This document shows, in pieces, positions 1,298 to 61,470 of a stretch of DNA of 64,000 nucleotides. The stretch's first letter is position 1. Each line of letters begins with the position of its first letter. Source of the DNA: Parcubacteria group bacterium (GTDB taxonomy: Bacteria; Patescibacteriota; Minisyncoccia; Phycocordibacterales; Phycocordibacteraceae); contig JAQBRE010000002.1 in the NCBI GenBank assembly GCA_028286605.1, positions 399,687-463,686 on the forward strand, written 5' to 3'. A model generated the notes under the pieces. That model did no database searches and was not told the origin of the DNA. It was given only the letters and a program-made list of their open reading frames with translations. The position numbers were made by a program, and so were the translations under genes.

Positions 1298-1390
1298 ATT
1301 GTATGTATTATTCCATAAAATAGGCCGTTTTGCAATGTGAACGGCCGCCCGATGGGAATCGGGCGGCCTGATGTTCGTCGAAGGTGCTGT

Positions 1391-1687
1391 TTAGAGGTAT
1401 CCGCGTCTGCTCGTTCCGCCCCAGAATTTCCGGAAGGAAAGATCGGTGACGATACCGAAGAACAGATAGACGCCGAAAGCGATGCCGTAGACGAATAGAT
1501 GCGACAGCGAAGAGAAGACGCTCTCCAGTACTGCTACGGTAAGCACTGGCAGCATGACACCACAGATGATCGTAAACCAGAGGTCATCACGGGCATCAGT
1601 CCTGCTGTCGAAGCTTTCTAAGAAAGCCACGATTGGAAAGACGAGCAACCTGAACATGTAGCCGATAACAGCTATGAATTTTTTCAC
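1391..1687 (-). CDS. Small integral membrane protein (3 predicted TM helices). The start is uncertain (GTG at 1687 or ATG at 1657).
   Basis: Hydrophobic ORF ...FIAVIGYMFRLLVFPIVAFLESF...VMLPVLTVAVLESVF...VYGIAFGVYLFFGIV. The longer M1 start would overlap the divergent cysteine desulfurase gene. Tandem hairpins at 1318-1366 act as its terminator. Confidence 0.45.
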   Translation of the reverse strand: MKKFIAVIGYMFRLLVFPIVAFLESFDSRTDARDDLWFTIICGVMLPVLTVAVLESVFSSLSHLFVYGIAFGVYLFFGIVTDLSFRKFWGGTSRRGYL

Positions 1688-1767
1688 CGATGCCTCCCTG
1701 AGTTGTTTCTGGTGTAACGCTAGCACTCGCCATTGCGTGTGTCTACTGGGTAGCCTAGGCTGTAGGT

Positions 1768-2922
1768 ATGAAGCGGACCTATCTGGATTGGGCATCGGCG
1801 GCACCGGTTTCGAAGACGGCGCAGAAGGCATTCGAGCGTGCAATGAGGGCCGACGGTAATCCGTCGGCCCCGCATGCGGAAGGCCGTGCTGCGAAGGATA
1901 TTCTTGAAGCAGCGCGCACGGCCATCGCCCGTATGGCAGAAGTGAAGGTTGACGACGTGATTTTCACCTCAGGCGCAACCGAAGCGAATAATCTCGCCAT
2001 CTTTGGATTCATACAGGCAACGCGCGCAGTTGATCCTTCTCGCATGCTCCATATCCTGTATCTTCCGATGGCGCATGCGTCCGTAATCGAAACAGTTGAG
2101 ATGGTGGGCGGCTACGGCGTAGAGATTGAAGCGATCAGGCTTGTTGATGGCGCAATAGATTTGCAGGCGCTCAAGAAGCAGATTCGTCCTGACACCGTAT
2201 TGGTTGCGGTCGATGCGATCTGTGGCGAAACGGGAACGCGCTTCGCGACACGTGATGTACGTCGCGTGTTGGATGAGGTACGAAAAGGTATCGTGCTGCA
2301 TGTTGATGCGAGCCAGCTGCCGCTCGTTGAATCGTTCGAGCTAACGCGCCTTGGTGCAGACTTGCTTACTCTTGATGCGCAGAAAGTCGGGGGCGTGCGA
2401 GGAATCGGCGCGTTGGTACGACGTCATGGCGTACCGCTTGCGCCGATCATGCGCGGCGGCGGGCAGGAACAGGGAATGCGACCAGGAACGGAACTGCCTG
2501 CGCATGCGGCGGCATTCGCCGCCGCCCTGGAAGAAGCGAAGAAGAACCGAGACGCATTCGTGCAGCGTGCGGGCGAAGCCCGCACGCAACTGATCAAGAC
2601 AATCAGTGCTGCAATTCCCGATGTCGAAATAAATGCAGGCAAGCAGCATGCGCCGCACATCCTTAATCTCTCCTTTCCAGGCCGTGACACGGATTACGCA
2701 GTCGCTCTCCTCGACAAAGAGGGTTTCGCCGTCTCAACGAAAAGCGCTTGCGAAACAGATGCAGAGGGTTCGCGCGTCGTGCTCGCGCTGACGAATGATG
2801 AAGCTCGCGCAGCGAGCACTCTGCGCATATCATGGGGACCCTCAACATATGAAAAAGATATGAAGAGCTTTGCCTCTGTACTCGTGCGCACTATTCGATT
2901 TCTTGATGCGCATCGTCTATAA
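1768..2922 (+). CDS. Cysteine desulfurase / class V aminotransferase (NifS/IscS family)
   Basis: 384 aa. Motifs: YLDWASAAP, FTSGATEANNLAI, HVDASQ, GADLLTLDAQKVGG (PLP-Lys region) and STKSACETD (active-site Cys loop). Confidence 0.8.
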   Translation: MKRTYLDWASAAPVSKTAQKAFERAMRADGNPSAPHAEGRAAKDILEAARTAIARMAEVKVDDVIFTSGATEANNLAIFGFIQATRAVDPSRMLHILYLPMAHASVIETVEMVGGYGVEIEAIRLVDGAIDLQALKKQIRPDTVLVAVDAICGETGTRFATRDVRRVLDEVRKGIVLHVDASQLPLVESFELTRLGADLLTLDAQKVGGVRGIGALVRRHGVPLAPIMRGGGQEQGMRPGTELPAHAAAFAAALEEAKKNRDAFVQRAGEARTQLIKTISAAIPDVEINAGKQHAPHILNLSFPGRDTDYAVALLDKEGFAVSTKSACETDAEGSRVVLALTNDEARAASTLRISWGPSTYEKDMKSFASVLVRTIRFLDAHRL

Positions 2923-2931
2923 TCAGTACAT

Positions 2932-3684
2932 ATGAATATCGAGGATCTAACGAAGACTCAGTTGCTCCTCCTCACCATCCTGGTGAACTTTATCGTGTCA
3001 ATCGCCACGGGTGTGCTCGTGATATCCATGCTCGATCAATCGCCTGCGCCTATTACGCAGACCGTGCAGCAGATTGTCGACCACACGATTGAAACGATCT
3101 CTACGCCTATCGCGAGCCCTATCACGGTGAAGCCGTTACCAACAGCTGCAAGCCCGGAGCAGCAACTCACGAGTGCAATCGCTGCAGACAATTCGCGCAC
3201 AGTGCTTATCTACAGGCAAAACGCGACGACATCGCCTGCTCTTGCCTTTGGCGTCTATCTTCCGAAGTCACGCGCCGTTGCAACGACATTCAGTCTTCAG
3301 CTGCCGAAGGAAGTAACTATCATGTTCCCAAATGGCAGCACCGCTGATGCTTCACTTTCAAAGAATGGCGACACGATCGCTATCTATGGATTCTCGGATG
3401 CAGCAACGCTTCCCGCTGCGCCTGCCGCAAGTCCGGTTGCCATCGGCGACCTTATGCAGGGTGAGACAGTAATCGGGCTCACGAAAGATAAAGCCGCCTT
3501 AACCGGCATAATAAGTAAGGTCGATAAAACCGGAATCGTAACGAGCCTTTCCGGCGTGCCAGCGGGCGCGGGTATGGTCGACCTTGCGGGAAATGTAGTT
3601 GGTGTTTCGGCAGGCGATGGAAGGCTCTATTCGACTGATTCCATCATGAGCCTGCTTGAAACGCCGGCCGCTCCCGCACCGTAG
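2932..3684 (+). CDS. Membrane-anchored hypothetical protein. Its C-terminal region weakly resembles a degenerate trypsin-like fold.
   Basis: N-terminal TM helix (LLLLTILVNFIVSIATGVLVI). The C-terminal GETVIGL...GAGMVDLAGNVVGVSAG resembles the S1-protease GxSGGPxxNxxGxVIGInt block but has no GDSGG and no obvious His/Asp/Ser triad. Confidence 0.5.
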   Translation: MNIEDLTKTQLLLLTILVNFIVSIATGVLVISMLDQSPAPITQTVQQIVDHTIETISTPIASPITVKPLPTAASPEQQLTSAIAADNSRTVLIYRQNATTSPALAFGVYLPKSRAVATTFSLQLPKEVTIMFPNGSTADASLSKNGDTIAIYGFSDAATLPAAPAASPVAIGDLMQGETVIGLTKDKAALTGIISKVDKTGIVTSLSGVPAGAGMVDLAGNVVGVSAGDGRLYSTDSIMSLLETPAAPAP

Positions 3685-3728
3685 TATCTATATTGGGCAT
3701 TTAGTAGCCGTTTAGCTATCATATATAT

Positions 3729-6434
3729 ATGCCCCCTTTCAAAAACTTCACCACAAAAGCAAAAGAAGCTATAAAGCGAGCCCACGAGCTCGCTATTGAG
3801 CGTGGGCAGAATCACGTCAGTCCGCTTCACCTTTTAACAGCACTTATCCATCAGGAAGAAAGTCTGGTCTTTTCAGTGCTCGACCGCATGGATATCGATA
3901 CGATGGAACTTTCCGATACGCTGCTCGAATCCCTTGAATCTCCGGACCCCACCTCAGTCCTTTCTCCTTCATTCAACCTGTATCTCACGCCGGAACTCGC
4001 ACAGGCGCTTGAATCGGCAGGGAAGGTCGCTGCACGCATGAATGACTCCTATATAGGAACGGAGCATCTGTTCCTTGCAGTTATTGAGAATCCAGGACCA
4101 GCGGATGATATCCTCACGCGTTTCAAGATAGATGAAGAGACCGTCGAAGCAGTTCTTAAGGAACTCAAGACTTCGAAGGACGGACAGGTTGCCGAACCGA
4201 AGCGGTTCCGCGCGCTTTCCAAATACACGCGCAATCTTACGAAGCTCGCGGCAGACAATGCGCTTGATCCGGTTATCGGCCGTGATCAGGAAATAAATCG
4301 CGTGATTCAGATACTCTCGCGCCGCACGAAGAACAATCCGGTGCTTATCGGCGAAGCAGGCGTGGGTAAGACAGCGATCGCAGAAGGTCTCGCGCTGCGC
4401 CTTTCAACCGGCGAAGTTCCAGAATCCCTGAAGGGCAAGGAACTCCTTTCGCTTGACCTCGGCATGATGATCGCCGGCACGAAGTACCGTGGCGAATTCG
4501 AAGAGCGTATGAAGGCTGTGATGAAGGAAGTAGAGAAGTCCGATGGCAAGGTCATCGTCTTCGTTGATGAGCTGCACACGCTCGTAGGCGCCGGCGCCGC
4601 GGAAGGATCCCTTGATGCGACGAACATGCTTAAGCCGGCGCTCGCACGCGGCGAGATTCGCATGATCGGCGCGACCACGCTTAAGGAATATCAGCAGCAT
4701 ATCGAAAAGGATGCTGCGCTTACGCGCCGCTTCCAGCCGGTATACGTGAATGAACCGAATGAAGAAGACGCTATCGCGATTCTTCGCGGCCTACGCGACA
4801 AGTACGAGCTCTTCCATGGCGTCCGCATCACGGACGGCGCTATCGTTTCCGCTGTGGAGCTTTCTAGTCGTTACATTTCAGACCGTTTCCTTCCAGACAA
4901 AGCTATCGACCTTGTGGACGAAGCCGCTTCCGGCCTTCGCATCGCGCTTGAAAATAAGCCACCGCAGCTTGAAGAGACAGACCGAAAGATCCGCCGCCTT
5001 GAAATCGAACGACAGGCTCTTAAGAAGGATGATGAAACGCTTTCCGAACAGGCTCCGGCGAACACGAAGGAGATTCGCGAGCGCGTGAAGGCTATCGATG
5101 CGGAAATCGCAGATTTCCGCGAGAAGACGGCCGAGCTCGAGCTTAAGTGGAAGAACGAAAAAGAAGTCCTGCAGGACATCCGCGCACTCAAGGCAGAACT
5201 CGATCGCCTGCGTGTCGCTGCTGATAACGCCGAAGCCACTGCAGATCTGGGCACTGCCGCAGAAATCCGCTACGGCCGTATGCCGCACTTGCAGAAGGAA
5301 CTCGAAACAAAGACGAAGCGCCTCAAGACGCTTCAGAAGTCGCGTCGCATCCTGCATGAGGAAGTTACCGAGCATGAAATTGCCGGTGTCGTCTCACGCT
5401 GGACCGGTATCCCGGTTGCAAAGATGATCGAGGAAGAAGCAGCGAAGCTCGCGCGCATGGAACTCGACCTTACGACAGCGGTCATAGGACAGAACGCCGC
5501 GATCAAGATCGTTACGGACGCAGTGAAGCGCTCGCGCGTGGGTATCGCGGACCCGAATCGTCCGATCGGTTCGTTCATGTTCCTTGGCCCGACCGGCGTC
5601 GGAAAGACGGAACTCTCGAAGCGTCTCGCTGAATTCATGTTCAATGATAAGGATGCGCTGGTTCGCGTCGACATGTCTGAATTCATGGAACGCCACTCGG
5701 TCGCTAAGCTCATCGGTGCGCCGCCAGGATATGTGGGCTACGACGAAGCAGGTTCGCTCACCGAACGCATCCGTCATCGCCCGTATTCAGTCGTCCTCTT
5801 CGATGAAATCGAGAAAGCGCATCCTGAAGTATTCAACATCCTTCTGCAGGTTCTCGATTCCGGCCATCTTACCGACGGGAAGGGTCGCAAGGTGAACTTC
5901 AAGAACACCATCATCATCCTTACGTCGAACATCGGCGCGGAATACATGGACCGCATGGCGAACATCGGATTCGGCAGCGCAGAGCACGGCGAAGCCACCG
6001 CGTACGAACAGATGAAGGAGAAGGTCATGGGCTCGCTCAAGGAACAGTTCCGTCCTGAATTCCTGAACCGTCTTGATGACATCATTATCTTCGATCCGCT
6101 TTCCAAGGAAGCGCTCACGGAAATCGTGGAGAGCCAGGTCGTCGAAGTGGTCTCCCGCCTGAACGGCAAGCGCATCACGCTCGCCATTACTCCCGAGGTA
6201 CGTGCATGGCTGGCGGAAAAGGGATACAACCCGCAATACGGCGCTCGTCCGCTTAAGCGCACGATTCAGGACAAGATCCTTACGCCGATCGCGTCGCTTA
6301 TGGTGGGGCAGGGAATCATGGAAGGCGGCACCGTAACGGTATCGCTCAAGAATGGCGAACTGCACTTCGATGTTAAGAAAGGTTTGACGAAGACTCGTCG
6401 TACCAAGGCGCAGGCGGCCGCAACGGCCGCCTAG
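3729..6434 (+). CDS. clpB: ATP-dependent chaperone ClpB
   Basis: 901 aa. Clp_N repeats, two AAA+ modules ([15 protein letters not shown]; [15 protein letters not shown]), a long coiled-coil M-domain between NBD1 and NBD2, and the C-terminal ClpB_D2-small domain. Confidence 0.93.
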
Positions 6435-6470
6435 TTGCCCCAGCCCATTCCATCTGGTACAGTATTTCCA

Positions 6471-6623
6471 ATGTCACAGGTAAATCTAATCAAGGTAAAG
6501 AGCGCTTCCGGGCACGTCCTCTTCACCCGCAAGAACAAGAAGAAGGTGGAGCGCAAGCTCGAACTCAAGAAGTTCGACAAGACCACCCGAAAGCGTGAAA
6601 TCTTCAAGGAAGTTAAGAAATAG
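6471..6623 (+). CDS. rpmG: 50S ribosomal protein L33
   Basis: MSQVNLIKVKSASGHVLFTRKNKKKVERKLELKKFDKTTRKREIFKEVKK matches the L33 signature (Y/FTTxKNKRxxPxKLELKKYDPxxRKHVxFKE). An upstream in-frame ATG at 6435 is also possible. Confidence 0.8.
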   Translation: MSQVNLIKVKSASGHVLFTRKNKKKVERKLELKKFDKTTRKREIFKEVKK

Positions 6624-6625
6624 AA

Positions 6626-6670
6626 CATGAGCAAGAAAAACCGCCTACCCAGGCGGTTTTTCTTGCTCAT
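6626..6670 (+). terminator. Rho-independent terminator after rpmG
   Basis: Perfect 20-bp stem atgagcaagaaaaaccgcct / aggcggtttttcttgctcat with a 4-nt loop and an internal U-run. Confidence 0.75.
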
Positions 6671-6764
6671 AGTATTCTCATAAATATATGTTATAGTGCT
6701 CGCGAGACCGGAAAGTCCGGTTCTTGATCTTCTTTCTTCAATCTGGACCAAAGGGGTACTGGGA

Positions 6765-7421
6765 ATGCACTTTAAAAACCATCTTTTGGGCGCCGCAGCC
6801 GCGGTGGCTCTCATGTCGTTCGCCGTTCCGGCGTTCGCCACGGACTACGTCTTCACCGGCACGTCGATGACCAACCCGGACATCGTCAGTGTCGATGGGG
6901 AAGGTGTCTATATGGCGCCGATGGACTTTCAAGGCGTGCAGTCCATCGAGGCTTGGTGTCTCGATGTCACTCACTTCATCAGCCTCGGCGCTCAAAACCC
7001 GGCGCTGGAGTACAACAAGGAGACGCTCACCACGTCCACGATGTTGAACGGCAACCCGTCGTTCGGCGCGCTGCAGATCGGCGAAATCAGCTATCTGATC
7101 AACATTCTCGCTCCGACGCTGGCTCCTGGTCACGCGTTGAATGAGGTGCAGGGCGCCATCTGGGACATCACTCTCGGCGGCGTTGGCCACGTCACTTCCG
7201 GCGATTCTGGAATCCAAGCGGGCATCGACCACTTCGCCACGCTCGGTCTGACCTCGGGCCGCACTGTCATCGGTCTCGAATCCACCGGAATCACTCCGAA
7301 CGTGCAGGACTTCGGGATGGCCGGCGGCGTGCCTGAACCGGCGGCCTGGGCTCTGATGCTCCTCGGCTTCGGCGGCCTCGGCGCTGCGCTTCGGCACCAG
7401 CGGCGAGCGGCGTTCGCCTAA
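6765..7421 (+). CDS. Secreted PEP-CTERM-anchored protein (exosortase substrate type)
   Basis: N-terminal signal peptide MHFKNHLLGAAAAVALMSFAVPAFA. The C-terminus GGVPEPAAWALMLLGFGGLGAALRHQRRAAFA* is a VPEP motif, a hydrophobic helix and an Arg cluster. It uses GC-rich third codon positions. Confidence 0.75.
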   Translation: MHFKNHLLGAAAAVALMSFAVPAFATDYVFTGTSMTNPDIVSVDGEGVYMAPMDFQGVQSIEAWCLDVTHFISLGAQNPALEYNKETLTTSTMLNGNPSFGALQIGEISYLINILAPTLAPGHALNEVQGAIWDITLGGVGHVTSGDSGIQAGIDHFATLGLTSGRTVIGLESTGITPNVQDFGMAGGVPEPAAWALMLLGFGGLGAALRHQRRAAFA

Positions 7422-7454
7422 CAACGTTCGCTACGCATCTTCGGATGCACACCA

Positions 7455-7492
7455 AGGGCTCCCTTCGACTTCGGTCGTCGGGAGCCTTTTCT
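7455..7492 (+). terminator. Rho-independent terminator after the PEP-CTERM gene
   Basis: Stem ggctccc...gggagcc with a nested cgac-ttcg-gtcg hairpin, followed by ttttctatttcc. Confidence 0.65.
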
Positions 7493-7572
7493 ATTTCCAT
7501 ACTTTCTTTATTATTCTCTCAAGATTCCTTGACCATCAAATTGCTAGAGTTTATCCGGACAAGGAGGTTCTC

Positions 7573-7650
7573 ATGTGGATGATGATTCTGGGATTCAGCA
7601 TGGTTGGAATCATGCTGCGGTATCTAAAGCATAGGAAGCGAGTTTCTTAA
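7573..7650 (+). CDS. Small hydrophobic peptide (25 aa) with a strong Shine-Dalgarno sequence
   Basis: aaggagg lies 7 nt upstream of the ATG. The product MWMMILGFSMVGIMLRYLKHRKRVS is a single TM helix plus a basic tail. It is followed by the hairpin at 7657-7682. Confidence 0.4.
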   Translation: MWMMILGFSMVGIMLRYLKHRKRVS

Positions 7651-7654
7651 TACG

Positions 7655-7688
7655 AAAAGAGGGTCCGGAACGGACCCTCTTTCTTCAT
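7655..7688. terminator. Bidirectional terminator hairpin between the small peptide ORF and the convergent 7702-8799 gene
   Basis: aagagggtccg-gaa-cggaccctctt is a perfect 11-bp stem. It is flanked by A-rich sequence on the left and T-rich sequence on the right. Confidence 0.7.
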
Positions 7689-7701
7689 ATCTTGCTAACT
7701 G

Positions 7702-8799
7702 TTACAGACTCGAAATCTGAGACTCAATGAGCTGTATTGCGCTCAGGATGCTTAGGAACTCGGTCTGTATCTGACTCTTCACTGATGAGTTCGTCGTGCT
7801 CGTTACAGGCGTTGCTGTGTTCGTGGTGCCTACTAATGCGTTAAGAGCAGCACGAGTCGTTGGGCCAACATTGCCGAGCTGTGCAATTTTATGCGCTGCC
7901 TGGAATTTGATAACTGCGGCCTTTGTGGCATCTCCGAAGTGGCCGTTTGCTGTTGCGGTCAGGTCACCTTGTGCAATAAGAACCTGCTGAAGGGTCATCA
8001 CCTGTGGATCATTAGACCCAAGGGCAAGATCCGTGGTGAAAGTAGGATCTGCTGCGGTCGTCTGCGTGGCAGTCGTTCCGGTGGTACCCGCTGCGGTCTG
8101 CACAGCGATAACGACTGACGAAGTAGCGATTCTGCCCGCCGTATCAGCAGCAGTAATGTTTATAAGATGCGTGCCCGCATCGTTCGTTTGCGGCGTCCAG
8201 GAAAATACACCATTACTGCTAATGTTCGTATTCGTAATGCTGCTTGCTTCTGAACTATCGAATACGGTGTAGTTCGGTGCGTCAGGAAAACCGGATGCAA
8301 CTGCGCTCACCGTAACGGTTTGACCAGCATTCACTTTTGAAGAAGGGGAAACCCCACTCAAAGAAAGGGAAATAGGAGAGGTCGATACAGGATTGCTACC
8401 GCTGCTTGAAATGCTTGTGCCGCTTGGCGTAACGGTAAGGGTGTAGTTGGCGGTAGCAGCATTGCCGGAACTGTCAGAAACGACTATGGCAAGGGGATGC
8501 GTGCCCACATCGTTCTGTACCGGCGTCCATGCGAACTGACCCAAAGAATCCAGATCGTACCCGCCAAGACTCCCATTGTGATATCCATCACTCAATACGT
8601 ATTTTGGACTATTGAATCCAGTCGCCGTAACGGTAAACGTAACTTTCGTACCTACGGGGATTGAATTGCCAGGAGAAATGGAGTTAATGTTGATAGTGCC
8701 GGTATTCGCATATGCGCCCGTTGCCGTACCAAGCAAAAGCAATAGCCCGCCAGCATATCCGGCAATACGCACAGCATTCATTTGAAATGATTTGTTCAT
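7702..8799 (-). CDS. Secreted protein with two tandem Ig-like repeat domains and a C-terminal peptidoglycan-binding (PG_binding_1-like) domain
   Basis: Signal peptide MNKSFQMNAVRIAGYAGGLLLLLGTATGAYA. The internal ~100-aa repeat (TGFNSPKYVLSDG...AWTPVQNDVGTHPLAIVVSDSSGNAATANYTLTV and SGFPDAPNYTVFDSS...FSWTPQTNDAGTHLINITAADTAGRIATSSVVIAV) occurs twice. The C-terminus LALGSNDPQVMTLQQVLIAQGDL...GHFGDATKAAVIKFQAAHKI...GPTTRAAL matches the PG-binding helical repeat. A canonical RBS ggagga is present. Confidence 0.75.
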   Translation of the reverse strand: MNKSFQMNAVRIAGYAGGLLLLLGTATGAYANTGTININSISPGNSIPVGTKVTFTVTATGFNSPKYVLSDGYHNGSLGGYDLDSLGQFAWTPVQNDVGTHPLAIVVSDSSGNAATANYTLTVTPSGTSISSSGSNPVSTSPISLSLSGVSPSSKVNAGQTVTVSAVASGFPDAPNYTVFDSSEASSITNTNISSNGVFSWTPQTNDAGTHLINITAADTAGRIATSSVVIAVQTAAGTTGTTATQTTAADPTFTTDLALGSNDPQVMTLQQVLIAQGDLTATANGHFGDATKAAVIKFQAAHKIAQLGNVGPTTRAALNALVGTTNTATPVTSTTNSSVKSQIQTEFLSILSAIQLIESQISSL

Positions 8800-9068
8800 A
8801 GAAAATTATTTAGCCTTTCCTCCATTATATCCTACGCAGAAAACGAAGTACGCGTTGCGTATATATTACTAAGTTGATTCAAATATTTTGAATCCGTGGT
8901 GGCGGGCTCTGACGGAAGATTTTAGAACTATTGATTGGGCGAGGGAGTATCCGTTTCCTACGAGTGCACTACGTGAACTACAAAGTATTTTTGTATAAAA
9001 GAAAACCGCCCACAAGTGTGACCCAATGGGTCAGCTTTCCTAGTGGGCAGTCTCGATCTTGTATAAGG

Positions 9069-9542
9069 TCATTCATTCAATATTTGTCGAAGCTTGTTGC
9101 GAGCTTTTGCTATGCGACGATGCACCTCAGAGAGTCCTATGTTCTCCTCAGAAGCAATCTCTGATGGAGATTTACCTTCGACAGCCTTACGAAGTGTTCG
9201 GGCCCAAGCTTGAGGTAACATCTCAATAGCAAACAGTACCTGGTTGAGCTCAGCAGCGAGGGCTTGGTTTGCTTCGATGTGCTTACCAGGGTCTTGTATT
9301 TTGTGCGAGAGAGATATGCGTATGCTCCTTTTCCGTAGCATGTCGTAAAATCGATGACGCATACTGATTCGCAGTGAGGCTCCCATACTTTCCTCTGAGG
9401 CAAAGTCTGCTCGATATTTAAGCGCCTCACACATTACTTCGTGCAGAAGATCCTCAGCATCGTGATGATTACGCGTTACGCCCCAGGCGTATCTGAAGAG
9501 TGGGCCATAATGACCCATGAGTTTTTGCTCAAACGGGTCCAT
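9069..9542 (-). CDS. ECF-type RNA polymerase sigma factor (sigma-70 family, regions 2 and 4)
   Basis: DAEDLLHEVMCEALKY (region 2.x) and SPSEIASEENIGLSEVHRRIAKARNKLRQ (region 4.2 HTH). 157 aa. Confidence 0.75.
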   Translation of the reverse strand: MDPFEQKLMGHYGPLFRYAWGVTRNHHDAEDLLHEVMCEALKYRADFASEESMGASLRISMRHRFYDMLRKRSIRISLSHKIQDPGKHIEANQALAAELNQVLFAIEMLPQAWARTLRKAVEGKSPSEIASEENIGLSEVHRRIAKARNKLRQILNE

Positions 9543-9710
9543 TTGTTACCTTTCAGGCGTTGCTTGGTTCTGAAATAAGTATGCCAAATAAATAAATTGT
9601 GTCAAATAGGCGGGCTTACGGAGTCTGGAATGGAACTCTATTGAAGAGACAATATTGAAATGGAAGAAGCATTCTGAACAACATTGAAACGAAAATGATA
9701 TAATTAGAAA

Positions 9711-10214
9711 ATGAGCCCCGATGTAGAGAAGGTGAATATCGCTTATATAGATGCTGCAAATCTAGACAGAGCCTTGAAAGATTTAAACTGGAAACTAGAT
9801 TACAAGAAATTTAGAGTCTGGCTTTCTGATAAATATAAAATTGAGCGCGCTTATATTTTCATAGGGTTAATTCCTAAATACAAAGATTTATATACTCATT
9901 TCCAAGAATGCGGATTCACGGTCATCTTCAAGGAGGTGGTGTATCAAGGAGGAGGAATTCCTAAAGGGAACTGCGATACAGATTTAATAATGCAGGCAAT
10001 GGCAGATGCCTATGAAGGAAGCCTTCAAAAGGCACTGATCATTTCCAGTGATGGTGATTACGCCCCGTTAGTTAAGAAATTACAGTCGCGAGAGCAATTC
10101 CTAGCAATACTATCTCCTGCTCCGGCTAAGAAATGTTCGATACTTTTGAAACGAACAGACGCACCCATTGCATATATTAACGATCAACGAGGGCTCCTTG
10201 AGGAGATTAAATAA
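9711..10214 (+). CDS. NYN-domain (LabA-like / PIN-like nuclease) protein
   Basis: VNIAYIDAANLDRA...(D)...LIISSDGDYAPLVKKL follows the NYN/LabA pattern (FIDGxNL ... SGDGDF). The surrounding islet is AT-rich (~35% GC). Confidence 0.65.
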   Translation: MSPDVEKVNIAYIDAANLDRALKDLNWKLDYKKFRVWLSDKYKIERAYIFIGLIPKYKDLYTHFQECGFTVIFKEVVYQGGGIPKGNCDTDLIMQAMADAYEGSLQKALIISSDGDYAPLVKKLQSREQFLAILSPAPAKKCSILLKRTDAPIAYINDQRGLLEEIK

Positions 10215-10384
10215 AAAGGCCCCCGATGCGGACGAGCCGCATAAGGGTCCTTTTCGTGGTGATATCTAGAGTATACTCGAACACCATGAGGATTTCAAGA
10301 AGAGGTGTATAACCCCTGATTTCTAAGATGTGTTTCCTGTGGACGAGATTCGACGATTCCTGACGACAAGCATAATATAAATAT

Positions 10385-10918
10385 ATGACCTACGCACAAG
10401 CCGAGGCGAAATTTAAGAGCATAAAGACTGCTATTGGAAAATGGTTGGGGATCAAACGGGTAAAGAAACAAATTCACGATCAGGCAACTAAGGATGCTTT
10501 TGCGAAATCAGACCCTGATACAAAGATGAAGCTTATCGGACCCCAACTCGAAATCTTTACTTCATCGGTGTCTAGAAAGTCAGATCTTCTTCCAACTATT
10601 GCTACTCTCGTTGCGGCTCTAATAGTTGTTACTACCCTAAATCATGACCTTGTACCTCTTCGACCTACTGAAACCAAGGCAATTTTAAGCCTCTTCTTAA
10701 TCCTTATTCCGATTACTCTTAATTACTACATAAAAGTAATGGAGCATACGGCAAGGGGAGCTGTCGACATAATCGATTCTTATCAGGGATTCAGTACGTT
10801 CGAAAAAATGGGACCAGTCTCGTTTCTTCAGAGTTTAAGTTCCGAGTTTCCAATAATAATTGTTTATATAATTTATGGTGTCGTTGGATTAATTATATTC
10901 AGAATCTGGTACGGATAA
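10385..10918 (+). CDS. Hypothetical membrane protein (AT-rich islet)
   Basis: 177-aa ORF with three or more hydrophobic helices (LLPTIATLVAALIVVTTL; AILSLFLILIPITLNYYI; FPIIIVYIIYGVVGLIIFRIW). Its AT-rich composition matches the neighbouring NYN gene. Confidence 0.5.
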   Translation: MTYAQAEAKFKSIKTAIGKWLGIKRVKKQIHDQATKDAFAKSDPDTKMKLIGPQLEIFTSSVSRKSDLLPTIATLVAALIVVTTLNHDLVPLRPTETKAILSLFLILIPITLNYYIKVMEHTARGAVDIIDSYQGFSTFEKMGPVSFLQSLSSEFPIIIVYIIYGVVGLIIFRIWYG

Positions 10919-10924
10919 ATAAAT

Positions 10925-10998
10925 TGGCGGGCCCACGAGGAATCGAACCTCGGCCGACGGTTTTGGAGACCGACGTTCTACCATTAAACTATAGGCCC
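10925..10998 (-). tRNA. tRNA-Trp (anticodon CCA), with CCA encoded
   Basis: The reverse complement GGGCCTATAGTTTAATGGTAGAACGTCGGTCTCCAAAACCGTCGGCCGAGGTTCGATTCCTCGTGGGCCCGCCA folds as a cloverleaf: 7-bp acceptor stem, T-arm CGAGG-TTCGATT-CCTCG, and anticodon loop CTCCAAA. Confidence 0.88.
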
Positions 10999-11079: not shown

Positions 11080-12081
11080 ATGGGCACTCGCGCTACTCTT
11101 ATATCCTCCGGCATCCTCGCGCTCGCTGCGATGCCGCTTTCTGCATTCGCTGCCACGACGAACTTCTTCGGCCCGATCATTCCGCAGGGAGGGAACTGTC
11201 TTTGTGCAACAAGCGCAATGGACTGGGGCTGCGTAATTGCGGTTGTCCAAAACGTACTGAACCTATTGGTCTCGCTTGGCGTTATTGCCGTGGTGTTCTT
11301 CTTTGCCTGGGCAGGATTCACGCTCGTAGCAAGCGGTGGGAGTCCTGCAGCGCTCACGAAGGCGAAGAATCGTATGCTTAATGCCGTACTCGGTCTCGTG
11401 CTTATCCTTGGTGCGTGGACGATTATCGATACGATCATGAAGGTCCTCTACAATCCTTCTGCAGCATTTACTGGCGGCACTTTCGGTCCATGGGAAAGCG
11501 TTCTTAATGCGAATAACGGCGCGTATTGTTTGAAGCCTAATACTTCTCCAGGAATTCTTACGAATGGAAGTATCATTGGGACACTTATTAATGCAGTGAA
11601 TCCCGGCACAGCAAACTCTTCATCGAATCCTGGTAGTTGTAATGTTGCTTCTGGCGGACCATGTACCGTTTCTAATTTGACGCCGGTATTTGGTAGTAAT
11701 GCAAGTCAGGCAGCGCAAATCTGTTCTGCAGAGAGTGGTAATAACCCGCAGAGCACGAGTAAGTCTGATAAAACTTCGGACGGTAATTCTTATTCTGTTG
11801 GTTTGTTCCAAATAAATCTGACAAACTCCTTTAATCAAAGCGTTGATGGACAGAATTGCAGTGCCGCATTCTCAAAGAAATGCCAAGGTAGCGCCGTTGT
11901 GCAATCGGGATCATCAGCAGGTTCATGTAGTGCAACTGTTATAAACCCACAGCTGTATAGTGATTGCGTTGCCGCCGCTCAGAACCCAACCACAAACATG
12001 CAGGCGGCTCAGGCAATCTACAGTCGGAACGGTAATTGGAATCCATGGTCAACCTCTAATACGTGCGGTCTTCATAGTTAG
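11080..12081 (+). CDS. Secreted fusion protein: TrbC/VirB2-like pilin domain, Cys/Ser/Asn-rich linker, and VirB1-like lytic transglycosylase (SLT) domain
   Basis: RBS ggaggt. Signal peptide MGTRATLISSGILALAAMPLSAFA. Two hydrophobic helices separated by a short basic loop (LVSLGVIAVVFFFAWAGFTLVASGG-SPAALTKAKNR-MLNAVLGLVLILGAWTII) match VirB2/TrbC pilin topology. The C-terminus CSAESGNNPQ...DGNSYSVGLFQINLTNS...NPTTNMQAAQAIYSRNGNWNPW matches the VirB1/SLT catalytic signature (ES..NP...GS.D.GLMQIN...Y..G.W..W). The ORF-track start at 10924 would overlap tRNA-Trp and is rejected. Confidence 0.7.
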   Translation: MGTRATLISSGILALAAMPLSAFAATTNFFGPIIPQGGNCLCATSAMDWGCVIAVVQNVLNLLVSLGVIAVVFFFAWAGFTLVASGGSPAALTKAKNRMLNAVLGLVLILGAWTIIDTIMKVLYNPSAAFTGGTFGPWESVLNANNGAYCLKPNTSPGILTNGSIIGTLINAVNPGTANSSSNPGSCNVASGGPCTVSNLTPVFGSNASQAAQICSAESGNNPQSTSKSDKTSDGNSYSVGLFQINLTNSFNQSVDGQNCSAAFSKKCQGSAVVQSGSSAGSCSATVINPQLYSDCVAAAQNPTTNMQAAQAIYSRNGNWNPWSTSNTCGLHS

Positions 12082-12614: not shown

Positions 12615-13446
12615 GGTTTTCGAGACTGGCGAGTTTACGGAGCCACTTCTTCTGTTCGCGCGCATAGTGCCAGAGCTTTACGGATAGGGAACCGAGGAGC
12701 GATTCTTCGGTGCGTTCGTCGCGGAGGTATTCGCCAACAATTCGGTATTCAAGGCCGAGCTCATTCAGACGTGCGTCGCCGACACGTTCGCGGGTCTGGC
12801 GTACCTCCTCGATGAGGCCGTTCTGGAGCGCCTGCAGCAGGCGCTCTTCGATGCGCGGCCGCAATTCCTCCTTTGGTGGGTCTATCACCACCCACTGCAC
12901 ATTGTAGAGCGCCTCACGTTGTACACGTTCCGGCACCGCGCCGCGCAGGGTGATAATCTCAAGCGCACGAACGAGCCTGCGACGGTTGTTCGAATCCAGC
13001 ATGCCAGCACGACGCGGATCTTTAGCGAGGACCTGCGCAAATAGTTCCTGCGTTGAAAGCTTCTCGAGTTCGATGCGCAGTGCCGGGTCACTCGGAATTT
13101 CCGGCAAACCATATATCAGTGCATCGAAATAGAAATGAGTACCGCCGGCAAGGACGGGCACCTTGCCGCGTGCGTGCAAATCAGCGATGAGTTTTTTGGC
13201 ATCGACGACGAAGTCGCCGGCACTGTACGCATCTTCCGGTTCACGGATATCGATCAGATGATGCAGGATGCCCTGCATCTCTTCTTTCGAGATCTTTTCC
13301 GTCCCGATATCGAGCGTGCGATACACCTGACGTGAATCTACCGATATGACCTCGCCATCATACTCTTGGGCAAGCGCGATAGCTTTGGCGGACTTGCCGC
13401 TGGCCGTAGGGCCGATGACGGCAATAATAGGTTGAAGAGGCTCCAT
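12598..13446 (-). CDS. miaA: tRNA dimethylallyltransferase
   Basis: IAVIGPTASGKS P-loop, DSRQVYRTLDIGTEKIS and LAGGTHFY motifs. 282 aa. Confidence 0.88.
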   Translation of the reverse strand: MEPLQPIIAVIGPTASGKSAKAIALAQEYDGEVISVDSRQVYRTLDIGTEKISKEEMQGILHHLIDIREPEDAYSAGDFVVDAKKLIADLHARGKVPVLAGGTHFYFDALIYGLPEIPSDPALRIELEKLSTQELFAQVLAKDPRRAGMLDSNNRRRLVRALEIITLRGAVPERVQREALYNVQWVVIDPPKEELRPRIEERLLQALQNGLIEEVRQTRERVGDARLNELGLEYRIVGEYLRDERTEESLLGSLSVKLWHYAREQKKWLRKLASLENPTEAS

Positions 13447-13507
13447 GCGCGTTTATGCAGGCGATGCTATCATACAATCCTCACTAGCAGGTAATTACAC
13501 TCTTCGT

Positions 13508-14188
13508 ATGTCACCAGAAAAAAGCGGCCAGAAGGGGCGAAAGAGCAATTATTGCGAATACTGCGGCGACTTTCACGACTCATTTTGTGAATATACTTGC
13601 GCGGTACGCGTGGGCGAAGTGATTCCTGACTACGAATTCGAGTCGTTCCAGAACGAGAAGATCAGTACGATGAAGTTCTCTGACTTCCGTGGCAAGTGGC
13701 TCGTCGTGATGTTCTATCCGGGAGACTTTACCTTCGTGTGTCCGACCGAACTTGAAGATATGGCGAGCTTCTATGAAAAGTTCCAGGCAATGAATACGGA
13801 AGTGATTTCGTTTTCAACCGACACGGTGTTCACGCACAAGGCATGGCATGACACGTCTGAAGCGATAAAGAAAGTGAACTTTCCGATGGGTTCTGATCCC
13901 TCAGGCAAGATCGCTTCCGCGTTTGGTACGCTTATCGAAGGTGGCGAGCTTCAGCTTACGCCGGACGAAGGTCTTTCGCTCCGCGGTACGTTCGTCATAG
14001 ACCCGAGCGGCACTCTTCGCACGCTCGAGATACATGACAATAGCGTCGGCCGCAAAGCGGCCGAGACATTCCGCAAAGTGCAGGCTGCGCAGTATGTTGA
14101 AACGCATGCAGGCCAGGTGTGCCCTGCATCGTGGGAGCCAGGCGATGACACTCTCGAGCCAGGGATTAATCTGGTGGGGAAAATCTAG
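13508..14188 (+). CDS. Peroxiredoxin (typical 2-Cys AhpC/Prx1 family). It may carry an N-terminal Cys-rich extension, because the start is uncertain.
   Basis: FYPGDFTFVCPTEL peroxidatic Cys motif and C-terminal resolving Cys (QVCPASWEPG). The ATG at 13508 adds NYCEYCGDFHDSFCEYTC upstream of the Prx core. An alternative GTG start just before GEVIPDYEF would remove it. The ORF-track start at 13445 is rejected because it abuts the divergent miaA start. Confidence 0.75.
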   Translation: MSPEKSGQKGRKSNYCEYCGDFHDSFCEYTCAVRVGEVIPDYEFESFQNEKISTMKFSDFRGKWLVVMFYPGDFTFVCPTELEDMASFYEKFQAMNTEVISFSTDTVFTHKAWHDTSEAIKKVNFPMGSDPSGKIASAFGTLIEGGELQLTPDEGLSLRGTFVIDPSGTLRTLEIHDNSVGRKAAETFRKVQAAQYVETHAGQVCPASWEPGDDTLEPGINLVGKI

Positions 14189-14214
14189 CGAGAAAATAAA
14201 GAAAAGATAAAGTA

Positions 14215-14248
14215 AAACCCGTCCGATAGTCTGGACGGGTTTTCGCTT
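14215..14248. terminator. Bidirectional terminator hairpin
   Basis: aaacccgtccgatagtctggacgggttt with the stem cccgtcc/ggacggg. It lies between the prx stop and the minus-strand small ORF. Confidence 0.6.
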
Positions 14249-14264
14249 TCGCGTGAGCGCTGTT

Positions 14265-14468
14265 CTAGCGCTGGGTGGAAGCCGTTTCGGTTTCCTTGGT
14301 TCTTATTTCACGACCTCGCTTCATCCAGTCGAGTACTGTCTTCCGTGATGGGAATTCACCGGATTTCTTTTCCGGAACAGGCTTGCTAAAGGCGTCGTGA
14401 ATCATCCGTACGTCGTGATCATCTTCTTCGCACATAGTTCCCCCGAACAAAGGACAAGGTATGAACAT
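14265..14468 (-). CDS. Small basic hypothetical protein (67 aa). Low support.
   Basis: The ORF abuts the end of the ndk-like gene and overlaps its stop by about 1 nt. No recognisable domain. Confidence 0.3.
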   Translation of the reverse strand: MFIPCPLFGGTMCEEDDHDVRMIHDAFSKPVPEKKSGEFPSRKTVLDWMKRGREIRTKETETASTQR

Positions 14469-14469
14469 A

Positions 14470-14889
14470 TCATGACGGAAAGAAAAGTGCGATATCCCGT
14501 TTGGCCTCCCGCATATCCACCGGACGATGCATCACATTTTCCCACCAGTCCCATCCGTCGATATGCTGCGGGCTCGTGTGCTCGCTATAACGGAATCGAA
14601 TACTGTTAGGAGAACATCGGCGAGGGTCGCTGTGGCAACCAATTACCGCAAGAAGCTGCACGATGTTTGGCGTACGTACTTGCAGCGCAAGACCAGCTTT
14701 CCCAATCATACTCGCCGCGATGTGTGTACGTGCAGCAGCATTCATGTGGTCATAGAGCTGGTGAATCATATCCTCGGTATAAATGATTCGACTACGTTCT
14801 CGTACGCACATACCAGCACGCACAAGCGACTGAATGATTTCCGCTGCGTGCGGCAGGCCATCTGGTTTAATGATGCAACACACGTCCAT
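14470..14889 (-). CDS. Nucleoside-diphosphate kinase-like protein (divergent)
   Basis: N-terminal CIIKPDG (NDK IKPDG motif) and C-terminal NVMHRPVDMREAKRDIALFF (compare NxIHGSDSxExAxREIxLWF, catalytic His retained). The central region is divergent. Confidence 0.55.
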   Translation of the reverse strand: MDVCCIIKPDGLPHAAEIIQSLVRAGMCVRERSRIIYTEDMIHQLYDHMNAAARTHIAASMIGKAGLALQVRTPNIVQLLAVIGCHSDPRRCSPNSIRFRYSEHTSPQHIDGWDWWENVMHRPVDMREAKRDIALFFPS

Positions 14890-15044
14890 CGAGTTTTCTC
14901 CCCATGAGTGTCAGTCCGTGAATGAGTATAGCTAATAAGGCATCAAGGAGTCTTAAAGACTTCCTAAAGTTTTCCTGAAGATATAAAAGAGTTATTTGGC
15001 CTCAAGACAAGCTGAATAGAAGCCTGCAGCCATAGAGTTATTCT

Positions 15045-15431
15045 ATGGAAGATTTTGATTCATGGAACAAGTCCAAAAAACTGGATTACAGTAACTCTAA
15101 ACCGGAAGTATTTCCAAAAGCAGGAGAAGTTTGGTTAACCGTTCTTGGAAAGAACATTGGATACGAACAGAATGGAGTGACCGATAGATTTATTAGACCT
15201 TGTCTCATTGTTAAGAAATTTAATAATGGGATGTTTTGGGTGGTTCCACTCTCAAGTAAGCAAAAGAAATTTAATTTCTATTTTAATTTTCTTGATCCAA
15301 ATGGGTTACCTGTGTCTGCGATACTTGCCCAATTAAGAATGATAAGTAGCAAGCGCTTTTCAAAGCGTTTGTATAGTATGGATATCAAAACGTACCTTCG
15401 AATTAAGGGCAGACTAAAATCGTTTTTATAA
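15045..15431 (+). CDS. PemK/MazF-family toxin-like protein (mRNA interferase fold), apparently solitary
   Basis: FPKAGEVWLTVLGKNIGYEQNGVTDRFIRPCLIVKK...FWVVPLSSK follows the PemK/MazF pattern (GE[IV]W..D...G.EQ.G.RP.L[IV]V......VVPLTS). The islet is AT-rich. No antitoxin-sized ORF lies upstream. Confidence 0.6.
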   Translation: MEDFDSWNKSKKLDYSNSKPEVFPKAGEVWLTVLGKNIGYEQNGVTDRFIRPCLIVKKFNNGMFWVVPLSSKQKKFNFYFNFLDPNGLPVSAILAQLRMISSKRFSKRLYSMDIKTYLRIKGRLKSFL

Positions 15432-15432
15432 T

Positions 15433-15462
15433 AATCCAAAATCCCGCCGTGAGGCGGGATTT
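15433..15462 (+). terminator. Rho-independent terminator after the mazF-like gene
   Basis: aaaatcccgcc-gtga-ggcgggattt stem-loop. Confidence 0.65.
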
Positions 15463-15595
15463 GTTGGAGTCCACAATGGACACTTTGGCTATGGATCCCT
15501 AATTAATAGAAATCTCCCGGAGCCCACGAGGGCGCTGTCGCGAACCGGAGCTCGCTTGTGGCCATTATATCAAATCTGTTTTTTGAGTCTAGCAG

Positions 15596-15676
15596 TGCCG
15601 GGGGAGGGACTCGAACCCTCAAGCCTTGCGGCAGAGGGTTTTGAATCCTCCGCGTATACCATTCCGCCACCCCGGC
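15596..15676 (-). tRNA. tRNA-Leu (anticodon CAA); CCA not encoded
   Basis: The reverse complement GCCGGGGTGGCGGAATGGTATACGCGGAGGATTCAAAACCCTCTGCCGCAAGGCTTGAGGGTTCGAGTCCCTCCCCCGGCA has a 7-bp acceptor stem, anticodon loop TTCAAAA, an ~11-nt variable arm, and the T-arm GAGGG-TTCGAGT-CCCTC. Confidence 0.85.
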
Positions 15677-26975: not shown

Positions 26976-27713
26976 ATGAGTAAAGATCGAAAACAAGTAG
27001 CGATACGAATGCGTAAAGAAGGTAAAACCTATAGTGAAATTTGTAATGAACTTACTATTGCCAAATCAACTCTCTCACTCTGGTTACGAGCTGTGGAATT
27101 ATCCAAACCTCAAGAGCAGAGAATAACTGAAAAGCGTACCCAAGCAGCTGCACGAGGAGGAAAAGCACGCCACGATACTCGCATAAAGGAGATCGAGTAT
27201 TCAAATATCGCTGGGATAGAAAGTATCGGCAAGCTAACCCCGCGCGAATTGTGGCTTATCGGTATTGCCCTTCATTGGGCCGAGGGTTCAAAACAGAATG
27301 AACGCTCACTAAGTGCAGGCATCGTGTTTAGTAATTCCGACTATCGAATGGTCCAGGTCTTTCTGTTGTGGTTAGGTCTATTTAAAGTACTCGATGAGGA
27401 CATTATCTTTGAATTATATGTACACGCCAGTAGAAAAGAGGAAATAGAATTATTCAAAGGGTGGTGGTCCGAAAGACTTGCAGTTCCGATTGAAAATCTT
27501 TCCCGTATATATTTAAAGCAAGGAAATCCTCAGACAAGACGCACGAATACAGAAGACTTGTATCATGGCCTCATCCGCATTAAAGTTAAAAAGAGCACCG
27601 CGATGAATCGCAATATACAGGGCCTGATTCATGGCATTGCAACTCAATTGGGGAGTGGTGTAATTGGTAACACGTCTGCCTTTGAAGCAGAAGACTCTAG
27701 GATCGTACCCTAG
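26976..27713 (+). CDS. HTH-domain protein with a LAGLIDADG-like motif (possible free-standing homing-endonuclease-like gene) in an AT-rich insert
   Basis: N-terminal HTH (RMRKEGKTYSEICNELTIAKSTLSLWLR). The downstream ELWLIGIALHWAEGSK resembles the LAGLIDADG / LxGxxxG(D/E)GS motif. Local GC is about 40%. Confidence 0.45.
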   Translation: MSKDRKQVAIRMRKEGKTYSEICNELTIAKSTLSLWLRAVELSKPQEQRITEKRTQAAARGGKARHDTRIKEIEYSNIAGIESIGKLTPRELWLIGIALHWAEGSKQNERSLSAGIVFSNSDYRMVQVFLLWLGLFKVLDEDIIFELYVHASRKEEIELFKGWWSERLAVPIENLSRIYLKQGNPQTRRTNTEDLYHGLIRIKVKKSTAMNRNIQGLIHGIATQLGSGVIGNTSAFEAEDSRIVP

Positions 27714-27765
27714 CTCCCCAGCATCTATAACCAGCATTCGATCTCCAGTCTCCCAGCAATAAAAT

Positions 27766-59344: not shown

Positions 59345-59380
59345 ATAAACCATCCTCTTCGGGGGATGGTTTATTTATTT
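59345..59380. terminator. Bidirectional terminator after the uvrC-like gene and the convergent 59371-59835 gene. The region may also mark the 3' end of a small RNA (59220-59345).
   Basis: aaaccatcc-tcttcggg-ggatggttt + tttatttc. Upstream lie ttgact (-35-like) and the palindrome atacgttt-tc-aaacgtat. Confidence 0.55.
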
Positions 59381-61338: not shown

Positions 61339-61411
61339 GGGCCGTTAGCTCAGTTGGTAGAGCGCTTCATTTGCAATGAAGATGTCGCAGGTTCGAATCC
61401 TGTACGGTCCA
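61339..61411 (+). tRNA. tRNA-Ala (anticodon UGC) with the G3:U70 identity pair
   Basis: GGGCCGTTAGCTCAGTTGGTAGAGCGCTTCATTTGCAATGAAGATGTCGCAGGTTCGAATCCTGTACGGTCCA. Anticodon loop TTTGCAA and T-arm GCAGG-TTCGAAT-CCTGT. Confidence 0.9.
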
Positions 61412-61470
61412 CCCCATAAAAACTCAATTTGTCACGGCTGCCCCTGCACCAGATATGACGCATTACTCCC

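Follow-up and report, generated by a model that had tools for sequence, protein, structure and literature searches.

The window analysed here is a stretch of 64,000 nucleotides from the metagenome-assembled genome (MAG) of a Parcubacteria-group bacterium, a member of the Candidate Phyla Radiation (CPR/Patescibacteria). It contains an AT-rich islet whose last nucleotide, at position 10924, lies directly against the 3' end of a minus-strand tRNA-Trp(cca) gene at 10925. On balance, we regard this islet as the tRNA-proximal part of a composite and partly decayed accessory region, which would have been built stepwise from at least three independent single-gene cassettes at a tRNA-Trp hotspot. These are a module consisting of a NYN (LabA-like) nuclease gene and a convergent small RNA (sRNA; module at 9691-10313, about 0.6 kb), a membrane-gene cassette which forms the segment nearest to the tRNA (10314-10924), and a sigma-factor cassette (8909-9609). 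An earlier note on this DNA had already recognised compositionally atypical accessory DNA beside the tRNA-Trp 3' end, and the site indeed varies between relatives.

The boundaries of the NYN module and of the membrane-gene cassette emerge from a blastn comparison with the distant relative L082 (JGI 3300086439), in which the miaA, parB and relA products show 66-73% protein identity to those of the window while the NYN protein shows 95%. Here, a segment with 85% nucleotide identity to window positions 9691-10313 (the module, L082 positions 1726-2349) is joined to tRNA-Trp at position 2353. The module is thus flush with the tRNA 3' end, and window positions 10314-10923, which carry the membrane gene, are missing. 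Because L082 has the NYN module without the membrane gene, the two genes are not one inserted unit, contrary to the earlier note, which had described them as a single insert bounded by attL and attR. In 80 other NYN loci no homolog of the membrane gene was found either, and the possibility that the membrane protein is a partner of NYN was rejected on these grounds. The sigma-factor cassette is delimited by a much closer genome, L083 (JGI 3300044691), which shows 97.2% identity to window positions 6238-8908 and 95.5% to 9610-10601. This genome is without the 701 bp of 8909-9609, that is, the entire sigma gene together with its promoter and terminator, and the junction falls within the heptamer GCGGGCT, copies of which flank the cassette in the window (8902-8908 and 9610-9616). 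The gene itself (9069-9542, minus strand) encodes an orphan sigma factor of the extracytoplasmic function (ECF) type with 157 amino acids, Pfam domains Sigma70_r2 and r4 and a promoter-like site at 9605-9578; no homolog besides itself was found at E <= 1e-10.

In the order of events which we propose, the NYN module would have come first and stood against tRNA-Trp, a state kept in L082. The membrane cassette would then have been inserted at the tRNA end, between the NYN module and the tRNA, resulting in the state common to L083. The sigma cassette would have arrived last, at a distal tRNA-end-like site, and in the window only.

The cassettes belong to a larger variable region of roughly 4.5 kb (6435-10924), which extends from clpB (3729-6434, plus strand) on its left flank to the tRNA-Trp 3' end and is defined by synteny with 13 loci (L084-L096) obtained from a metagenome scan using the pilin gene on the 5' side of the tRNA. 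All 13 share the order clpB ... tRNA-Trp - pilin - miaA - tRNA-Leu - parB - relA. The gap between clpB and tRNA-Trp amounts to only 320-670 bp in L086, L088 and L090, which therefore represent near-empty sites. In L087, L091 and L093 it measures 2.4-3 kb and is occupied by unrelated genes, namely a P-type ATPase gene in the gaps of about 3 kb of L087 and L091, and genes for enolase and phosphoglycerate mutase in L093; L095 carries radical-SAM and other genes at this position. The earlier note had envisaged an empty site in which the sigma gene directly follows the tRNA. Near-empty sites do exist, but the sigma gene is not the chromosomal flank, since it is itself a cassette, an orphan one which the 97%-identical L083 lacks. 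No NYN gene was found at the tRNA-Trp site in any of the syntenic loci, including L084, which is nearer to the window than L082 is.

Several of these loci bear signs of integration at the same tRNA. In L093, a perfect 19/19 direct copy of the tRNA-Trp 3' end (5648-5666) is located about 115 nt from the tRNA, L095 contains two extra copies (5523-5540 and 5714-5732) and L094 one copy at 15/18. These copies indicate that integration at tRNA-Trp does occur in this clade. Those of L093 and L095, which comprise the last ~19 nt in exact or near-exact form, lie together with inverted T-arm fragments 100-300 nt downstream and resemble stacked att scars. In L092, the gap holds low-GC genes, an AAA_25 protein gene and the gene of a 617-aa large serine recombinase (Resolvase, Recombinase and Zn_ribbon domains) which abuts the tRNA-Trp 3' end. 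Positions 1-5864 of this locus have the appearance of an integrative element at tRNA-Trp, with a recombinase open reading frame (ORF) running into the tRNA gene and an additional DUF805 membrane protein; a distal att copy was not found within the 5.7 kb examined.

The membrane gene provides a second connection to large serine recombinases. It encodes an orphan protein of 177 aa (10385-10918, plus strand) with three hydrophobic segments in the hydropathy profile, which bears out the multi-transmembrane protein of the earlier note (about three transmembrane segments). The protein has no Pfam family, and among 5.8 billion proteins it falls into just three clusters, itself and two others. A homolog with 77% identity, found in L097/L098, starts 10 bp past the gene of a 433-aa large serine recombinase. 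This pair sits on the margin of a type I restriction-modification (RM) island with low GC, and downstream of the homolog lies the 3' exon of a tRNA gene interrupted by a group I intron with an HNH ORF. As its homolog directly follows such a recombinase on the margin of a tRNA-linked island, the membrane gene of the window looks like an element remnant, probably what survives of the tRNA-proximal end of a large-serine-recombinase element. In L097 itself, the interrupted tRNA (8595-9100; group I intron Rfam RF00028, 67.5 bits, with the HNH endonuclease ORF) was missed by ARAGORN, and the type I RM island with its large serine recombinase is integrated at the 3' exon of this intron-split tRNA. 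With a large serine recombinase linked both to the L092 element and to the nearest homolog of the membrane gene, the cassettes would most likely have been inserted by site-specific recombinases that act in trans on sites resembling the tRNA 3' end.

The edges of the sigma indel coincide with two partial copies of the tRNA end. Copy A (TGGCGGGCTCTGACGGAA, 8900-8917, plus strand), the first 8 nt of which are identical to the tRNA 3' end, forms the left edge, and copy B (AAATAGGCGGGCTTACGGAG..GGAATGGAAC, 9604-9636, plus strand), which repeats the tRNA-Trp 3' end in degenerate form and was delimited by gapped alignment, forms the right one; an additional similarity of 16/21 positions is found immediately to the left of both. 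The 64 kb contain 10 copies of the heptamer GGCGGGC of the tRNA acceptor end, which equals the chance expectation. Five of the 10 copies lie within 8134-10932, and the three in tRNA orientation are those of the tRNA, copy B (9609) and copy A (8901). Convincing terminal inverted repeats, as expected for the ends of miniature inverted-repeat transposable elements (MITEs), were not found on the sigma, NYN or membrane cassettes. The direct repeat which the earlier note had placed at 9609-9627, with 14 of 19 positions identical, is present, yet its best ungapped version runs from 9604 to 9623 and matches 10921-10940 at 15 of 20 positions. This score was reached by 3.8% of 1000 dinucleotide shuffles of 9000-10914 (P = 0.038 for a 1.9-kb target).

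Such a repeat, together with the adjacency to a tRNA 3' end and the low GC content, is what would be expected if the NYN gene and the membrane gene were a single integrative islet, put into the tRNA-Trp 3' end by an integrase that has since been lost, with the tRNA end and 9604-9623 as decayed attL/attR. The relatives described above, which carry att-like repeats of the tRNA end and a recombinase at the same tRNA, would also fit. The composition, however, only partly corresponds to the original description (~35% versus ~53% GC). Its direction is correct, whereas the difference is smaller, with 39.5% for 9600-10924 and 52.0% for the whole window; the 300-nt window with the lowest GC (9650-9949, 34%) is the sole one reaching that level. 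At third codon positions, the GC content (GC3) of the NYN ORF (0.377) and of the membrane ORF (0.367) lies 1.8-1.9 standard deviations (sd) below the average of the 46 long ORFs of the window (0.556, sd 0.098). A single islet is contradicted by L082 with its NYN module flush with the tRNA and by the 80 NYN loci without the membrane gene. It is likewise at odds with the NYN module having its own conserved boundaries and occurring at non-tRNA sites, and the repeat is not significant with gapped scoring. We therefore give a single insertion very little credence. Compared to tRNA-linked islands in general, in which attL and attR derive from the tRNA 3' end and elements accrete in tandem, the composite region is alike in its location at a tRNA 3' end, in its AT-rich accessory DNA that varies between close relatives, and in the tRNA-end repeats and the serine recombinase which relatives carry at the same tRNA. 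It differs in that there is no integrase, each cassette holds one gene in a mere 0.6-0.7 kb, and the repeats are very short or degenerate. Moreover, its most recent insertion, the sigma cassette, would have occurred at a distal pseudo-site and not at the tRNA itself.

The NYN gene (9711-10214, plus strand; protein of 167 aa, NCBI JWM39_497 on a 532-kb contig) had been recognised as encoding a NYN/LabA-like PIN-fold protein, and this assignment is solid. The ORF matches Pfam PF01936 with E 5.6e-14 and 53.3 bits (curated cut-off 24.2) and PDB entry 2qip with E 2.5e-7. An AlphaFold2 (AF2) model with a pLDDT of 90, compared by Foldseek, yields TM-scores of 0.70 to 2qip and 0.63 to the NYN domain of MARF1. 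Residues D14, D89, D91, D114 and D116 are invariant in 33 sequences. Judged by sequence and model, the protein is a putative nuclease of PIN-like fold, and it shares with LabA-like NYN proteins (PF01936/COG1432; 2qip; MARF1) both the fold and the acidic active-site motifs IDxxN, KGNCDxD and SDGDY. In contrast to these, it belongs to a CPR-restricted subfamily that retains 60-95% identity across lineages and is always coupled to a predicted antisense sRNA. LabA-like NYN proteins are numerous, yet in the 2017 classification of the PIN superfamily the function of PF01936/COG1432 is given as unknown, with none of its members studied as a nuclease, and bacterial NYN genes are tied to tRNA/rRNA processing via gene neighbourhood (PMC5499597).

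The subfamily comprises more than 1000 clusters and, in a scan of 185,579 bacterial and archaeal species with one genome each, was found in 316 species, all of them CPR. Its chromosomal sites differ: the gene follows tRNA-Ala(ggc) in L002/L003, stands beside an ABC-F ATPase gene in L004 and lies between uvrB and uvrA in L009; the neighbours of NYN in these four loci have homologs elsewhere in the window. In almost every genome NYN is AT-richer than its surroundings, with a total GC that falls short by 7 points on average (by more than 5 points in 51/73), and a GC3 that averages 11 points under that of the host (lower in 46/59 genomes) and tracks it (r = 0.80). Since the GC of NYN is low in dozens of genomes, we consider this a family trait and not evidence for a recent insertion here. 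Between window and L082, the dN of NYN is 0.026 compared to 0.23-0.31 for miaA, parB and relA, a 10-fold difference, while pS amounts to 0.65 for NYN and 0.74-0.77 for the housekeeping genes. These values indicate very strong purifying selection and give no firm sign of recent transfer; a recent horizontal transfer between the two lineages was dropped as a claim, as a pS of 0.65 is too near saturation. A phage or integrative and conjugative element (ICE) context, for which the earlier note had suggested a search, did not materialise. A match to PHROG was not obtained for the protein, and 2.9 million viral contigs yielded just 5 weak loci; of these five viral-labelled contigs, those with NYN contain the sRNA as well and resemble fragments of CPR genomes. 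A role as a known defence gene was rejected too, since PADLOC returned only weak matches at the domain level (NYN 9e-8, HEC-09 1.6e-6).

Some of these data would agree with a scenario devoid of mobile elements, in which all genes are long-standing residents of a fast-evolving intergenic or accessory neighbourhood, their low GC results from amino-acid composition and codon usage, and the repeats are due to chance. The correlation of NYN GC3 with the host and its lower value in nearly every genome point in this direction, as do the weak repeat statistics and the presence of NYN beside tRNA-Trp in both the window and the distant L082 with synonymous divergence near-saturated. However, long-standing residence does not account for the lack of the sigma cassette in a 97%-identical genome, for eleven syntenic relatives that have no NYN at this site, one of which, L084, is closer than L082, or for NYN residing elsewhere in L002-L004 and L009. 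Furthermore, the membrane and sigma genes are near-orphans, and at the edges of the indel stands a heptamer that matches the tRNA end exactly. Thus, we deem this scenario unlikely, and the stepwise assembly from cassettes remains the reading that we prefer.

A non-coding element directly behind the NYN stop codon is kept in every NYN locus, and nucleotide homology among these loci always ends at about 9720-9740 and about 10257-10279 (window numbering). In the window, this element corresponds to a predicted convergent sRNA of ~50 nt on the minus strand (10213-10264), whose transcript would run from about 10264 to 10213. It begins with the 5' tail AUCACCACG, followed by an 18-bp hairpin (10213-10255) and a U-run that overlaps with the stop codon of NYN. 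Aligned on the minus strand, 75 distinct sequences yield an 18-bp hairpin in which 94% of the cells are paired. Covariation is evident from 12 compensatory pairs in 151 cells, a value not attained in any of 500 shuffles, and the chosen register is a clear optimum compared to slid ones. G.U cells number 141 when the minus strand is read and 8 for the plus strand (paired cells 94.0% vs 84.1%), and this asymmetry identifies the folded RNA as the strand antisense to NYN. The NYN ORF of many homologs extends into the hairpin DNA (C-termini of P0024, P0028, P0057, P0073 and P0091; e.g. L010, L012 and L016), so that C-terminal tails such as EKAPDADKTA are translated RNA element and not conserved protein.

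The signals for transcription are conserved as well. A predicted sRNA promoter on the minus strand (10270-10298) consists of TTGAAA (10298-10293), a spacer of 17 nt and TATACT (10275-10270). Matches to TTGACA-16/17-TATAAT at 9/12 positions or better are present in 72/77 loci, at a fixed distance from the sRNA and pointing at the hairpin from the far side. Just upstream of the -35 element, a DnaA-box-like 9-mer (GGTGTATAA, 10304-10312) agrees with TGTGGATAA at 7/9 positions. With at most 1 mismatch to TTATCCACA / TGTGGATAA in either orientation and within 40 nt upstream of the -35, such a 9-mer is found in 30/77 loci vs 1% of shuffles; across L002-L081, DnaA-box-like motifs fall about 10-50 nt beyond the -35. 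The NYN gene is preceded by a promoter-like site (9675-9704, plus strand) of the form TGAACA-18-TATAAT with a TG extension. Because this extended -10 ends 6 nt before the ATG and the gene is without a Shine-Dalgarno (SD) sequence, the NYN mRNA is probably leaderless. Among the homologs, TAnnnT occurs 4-10 nt before the ATG in 36/70 loci, compared to 13/73 control windows, and an SD-like motif upstream of NYN in only 2/70.

A covariance model built for the sRNA scores 74.3 bits at its position in the window, where it has no second match. Scores of 62-83 bits were obtained only at the sRNA positions of NYN loci, with weaker versions behind divergent NYN paralogs, and no sRNA was detected in loci without NYN (0.96 Mb searched). 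The sRNA accompanies every NYN gene, including paralogs of 39-40% identity. Paralog modules, in tandem with the main NYN gene or near it, are located in L042 (4173-6500), L057 (4965-6510), L013 (11341-11884) and L017 (2168-2837). Each divergent paralog has a convergent hairpin sRNA, a promoter and a DnaA-box-like motif of its own, and the hairpin co-varies with the paralog. Rfam 15 contains no family for the sRNA at gathering thresholds (the best match at E <= 10 is the irrelevant flavi_FSE with 15 bits). Literature searches on NYN in Patescibacteria, and on NYN with toxin-antitoxin (TA) systems or antisense RNA, gave no title on the pairing of NYN and sRNA, nor was antisense sRNA coupling of LabA-like proteins found there or in PMC5499597. 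The candidate sRNA gene appears undescribed.

Taken as predicted, the module is an autonomous unit of a leaderless NYN gene and a convergent sRNA, which hundreds of CPR species have kept in its entirety. The sRNA would control the putative nuclease through base pairing with the complementary 3' end of its mRNA or else through binding to the protein, and a dedicated RNA that keeps a nuclease under control is the best-supported mechanism that we can offer for the module. Because of this presumed control, the module would behave as a selfish or defensive addiction-like unit. A far-reaching and, in our view, still rather speculative extension is that NYN and the hairpin sRNA constitute an undescribed, CPR-wide two-component system, in which a NYN RNase is held in check by a cis-antisense or decoy RNA with a DnaA-wired promoter. 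It might then represent a new type of toxin or defence module under RNA control, or an RNase switch coupled to replication, and would spread as an autonomous cassette of ~0.6 kb preferentially beside tRNA genes.

Type I TA loci with a convergent antisense RNA overlapping at the 3' end are exemplified by txpA/RatA and bsrG/SR4 of Bacillus subtilis. The NYN module resembles them in that gene and sRNA converge and share a bidirectional terminator hairpin, in the predicted full complementarity of the sRNA to the 3' end of the NYN mRNA, and in being a compact, mobile and AT-rich unit with tandem paralogs. The minus-strand promoter, the terminator hairpin over the stop codon, the covariation and the G.U asymmetry all point to an antisense RNA such as these loci possess. 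The protein, on the other hand, does not fit the class, as NYN is a soluble 167-aa protein of nuclease fold and not a small hydrophobic membrane peptide. It is also under very strong purifying selection, and the sRNA measures only about 50 nt. With type III TA systems such as ToxIN, where an endoribonuclease is inhibited by an RNA, the module shares the combination of a PIN-like/endoRNase-type protein and a dedicated structured RNA, and inhibition of the protein by the RNA would be possible. Here the RNA does not fit, being a single hairpin instead of an array of tandem repeats, and located downstream in convergent orientation instead of upstream in the same direction; NYN is, in addition, unrelated to ToxN.

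Several observations weigh against a recombinase-driven assembly from addiction-like cassettes. A Pfam scan covering the ORFs between 7702 and 10918 as well as the pilin gene (11080-12081) detected no integrase or recombinase, and a tblastn search of the window with the L097 recombinase revealed no relic (best E 1.6); the former equally counts against the single insert of the earlier note. No recognisable repeat marks the inner edge of the membrane cassette (10313/10314). In gapped local alignment, the repeat of copy B has a P of 0.12 for the 1.9-kb target and 0.30 for a 4.5-kb target, copy A is not significant alone, and both copies are thus statistically weak. As 22/50 native chunks of the window score at least as high as copy B in gapped alignment, copy B does not clearly exceed chance by sequence statistics, and the shuffling test proposed in the earlier note is marginal. 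The credibility of copy B derives instead from the comparative evidence, that is, its position at the indel edge, the clear tRNA-derived repeats of L093 and L095 and the recombinase of L092 at the same tRNA. Purifying selection on NYN is far stronger than on typical toxins, the module could be an old resident at tRNA-Trp given its near-saturated synonymous sites, and the sRNA is a prediction from sequence. Finally, a microhomology deletion between the 7-bp repeats could explain the 701-bp indel in place of site-specific recombination.

The latter point leads to an alternative in which the locus is a hotspot of microhomology-mediated gain and loss without any site-specific recombinase, and NYN with its sRNA is an ordinary regulated RNase of housekeeping type, e.g. 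in tRNA/rRNA processing. A 7-bp junction repeat is typical of microhomology deletion, and the window shows no integrase. NYN is conserved like core genes, bacterial NYN has published neighbourhood links to tRNA/rRNA processing (PMC5499597), and in 8/80 loci a tRNA stands no more than 300 bp from the module, where 2.3 would be expected. This alternative is difficult to reconcile with the patchy spread of the gene over 316 species that all belong to the CPR, with the changing location of a module that is consistently AT-rich and forms tandem paralogs, and with the true att-type repeats and recombinases found at tRNA-Trp in relatives. Altogether we hold this alternative to be doubtful, but to be taken seriously, and we retain the stepwise assembly of single-gene cassettes as our preferred interpretation.

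As to the remaining features, the tRNA-Trp gene (10925-10998, minus strand, 3' end towards the islet) was identified by ARAGORN and matches Rfam RF00005 with 67.8 bits; its CCA is encoded. Beyond the three cassettes, the variable region contains a gene for a peptidoglycan (PG)-binding surface protein (7702-8799, minus strand) and a PEP-CTERM-like gene (6696-7421, plus strand). Moving away from the tRNA-Trp 3' end, the gene order is 177-aa ORF, NYN, sigma, PG-binding, PEP-CTERM-like, clpB. On the 5' side of the tRNA, the pilin gene (11080-12081) encodes a fusion of a type IV secretion system (T4SS) pilin and a soluble lytic transglycosylase (SLT). With 36% identity to its counterpart in L082 (2508-3539), compared to about 70% for the housekeeping proteins there, this fusion beside tRNA-Trp is a fast-evolving surface protein; a search for contigs with exactly identical sigma and pilin-SLT proteins found no record. 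A second islet at a tRNA 3' end, of ~1.4 kb (14189-15594), lies between a peroxiredoxin-like gene (13445-14188) and tRNA-Leu(caa) (15595-15676, minus strand) and includes a low-GC (0.35) ORF for a PemK/MazF-type toxin (15045-15431). In L085 and L088, the peroxiredoxin gene is only 6-36 bp away from tRNA-Leu. A repeat of the tRNA-Leu 3' end bounding 14189-15594 was not found, the best match being 11/16. Further ORFs with low GC3 (0.30-0.38) are located at 61471-62403, 59371-59835 and 26976-27713, beside or near tRNA-Ala (61339-61413) and tRNA-Gln (27649-27722), and AT-rich genes adjoin all four tRNA genes of the window.

In conclusion, as a tRNA-linked variable region the islet belongs to an ordinary kind of feature, with an unusual fine structure. 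The tiny genomes of the CPR are usually described as poor in mobile DNA. For this group it is informative that single-gene cassettes of 0.6-0.7 kb turn over between genomes of 97% identity, at a tRNA which relatives use as attachment site for serine-recombinase elements. The NYN-sRNA module is the result of greater value and deserves follow-up. A NYN subfamily that combines core-gene conservation with a patchy distribution, and whose genes are always accompanied by a covarying predicted antisense sRNA, offers a testable handle on how the putative nuclease acts and is controlled. To our knowledge, few regulatory RNAs are known in the CPR lineage, to which the sRNA adds a candidate structured RNA. 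The module may serve in addiction, in defence or, through DnaA, in replication-linked RNA turnover.

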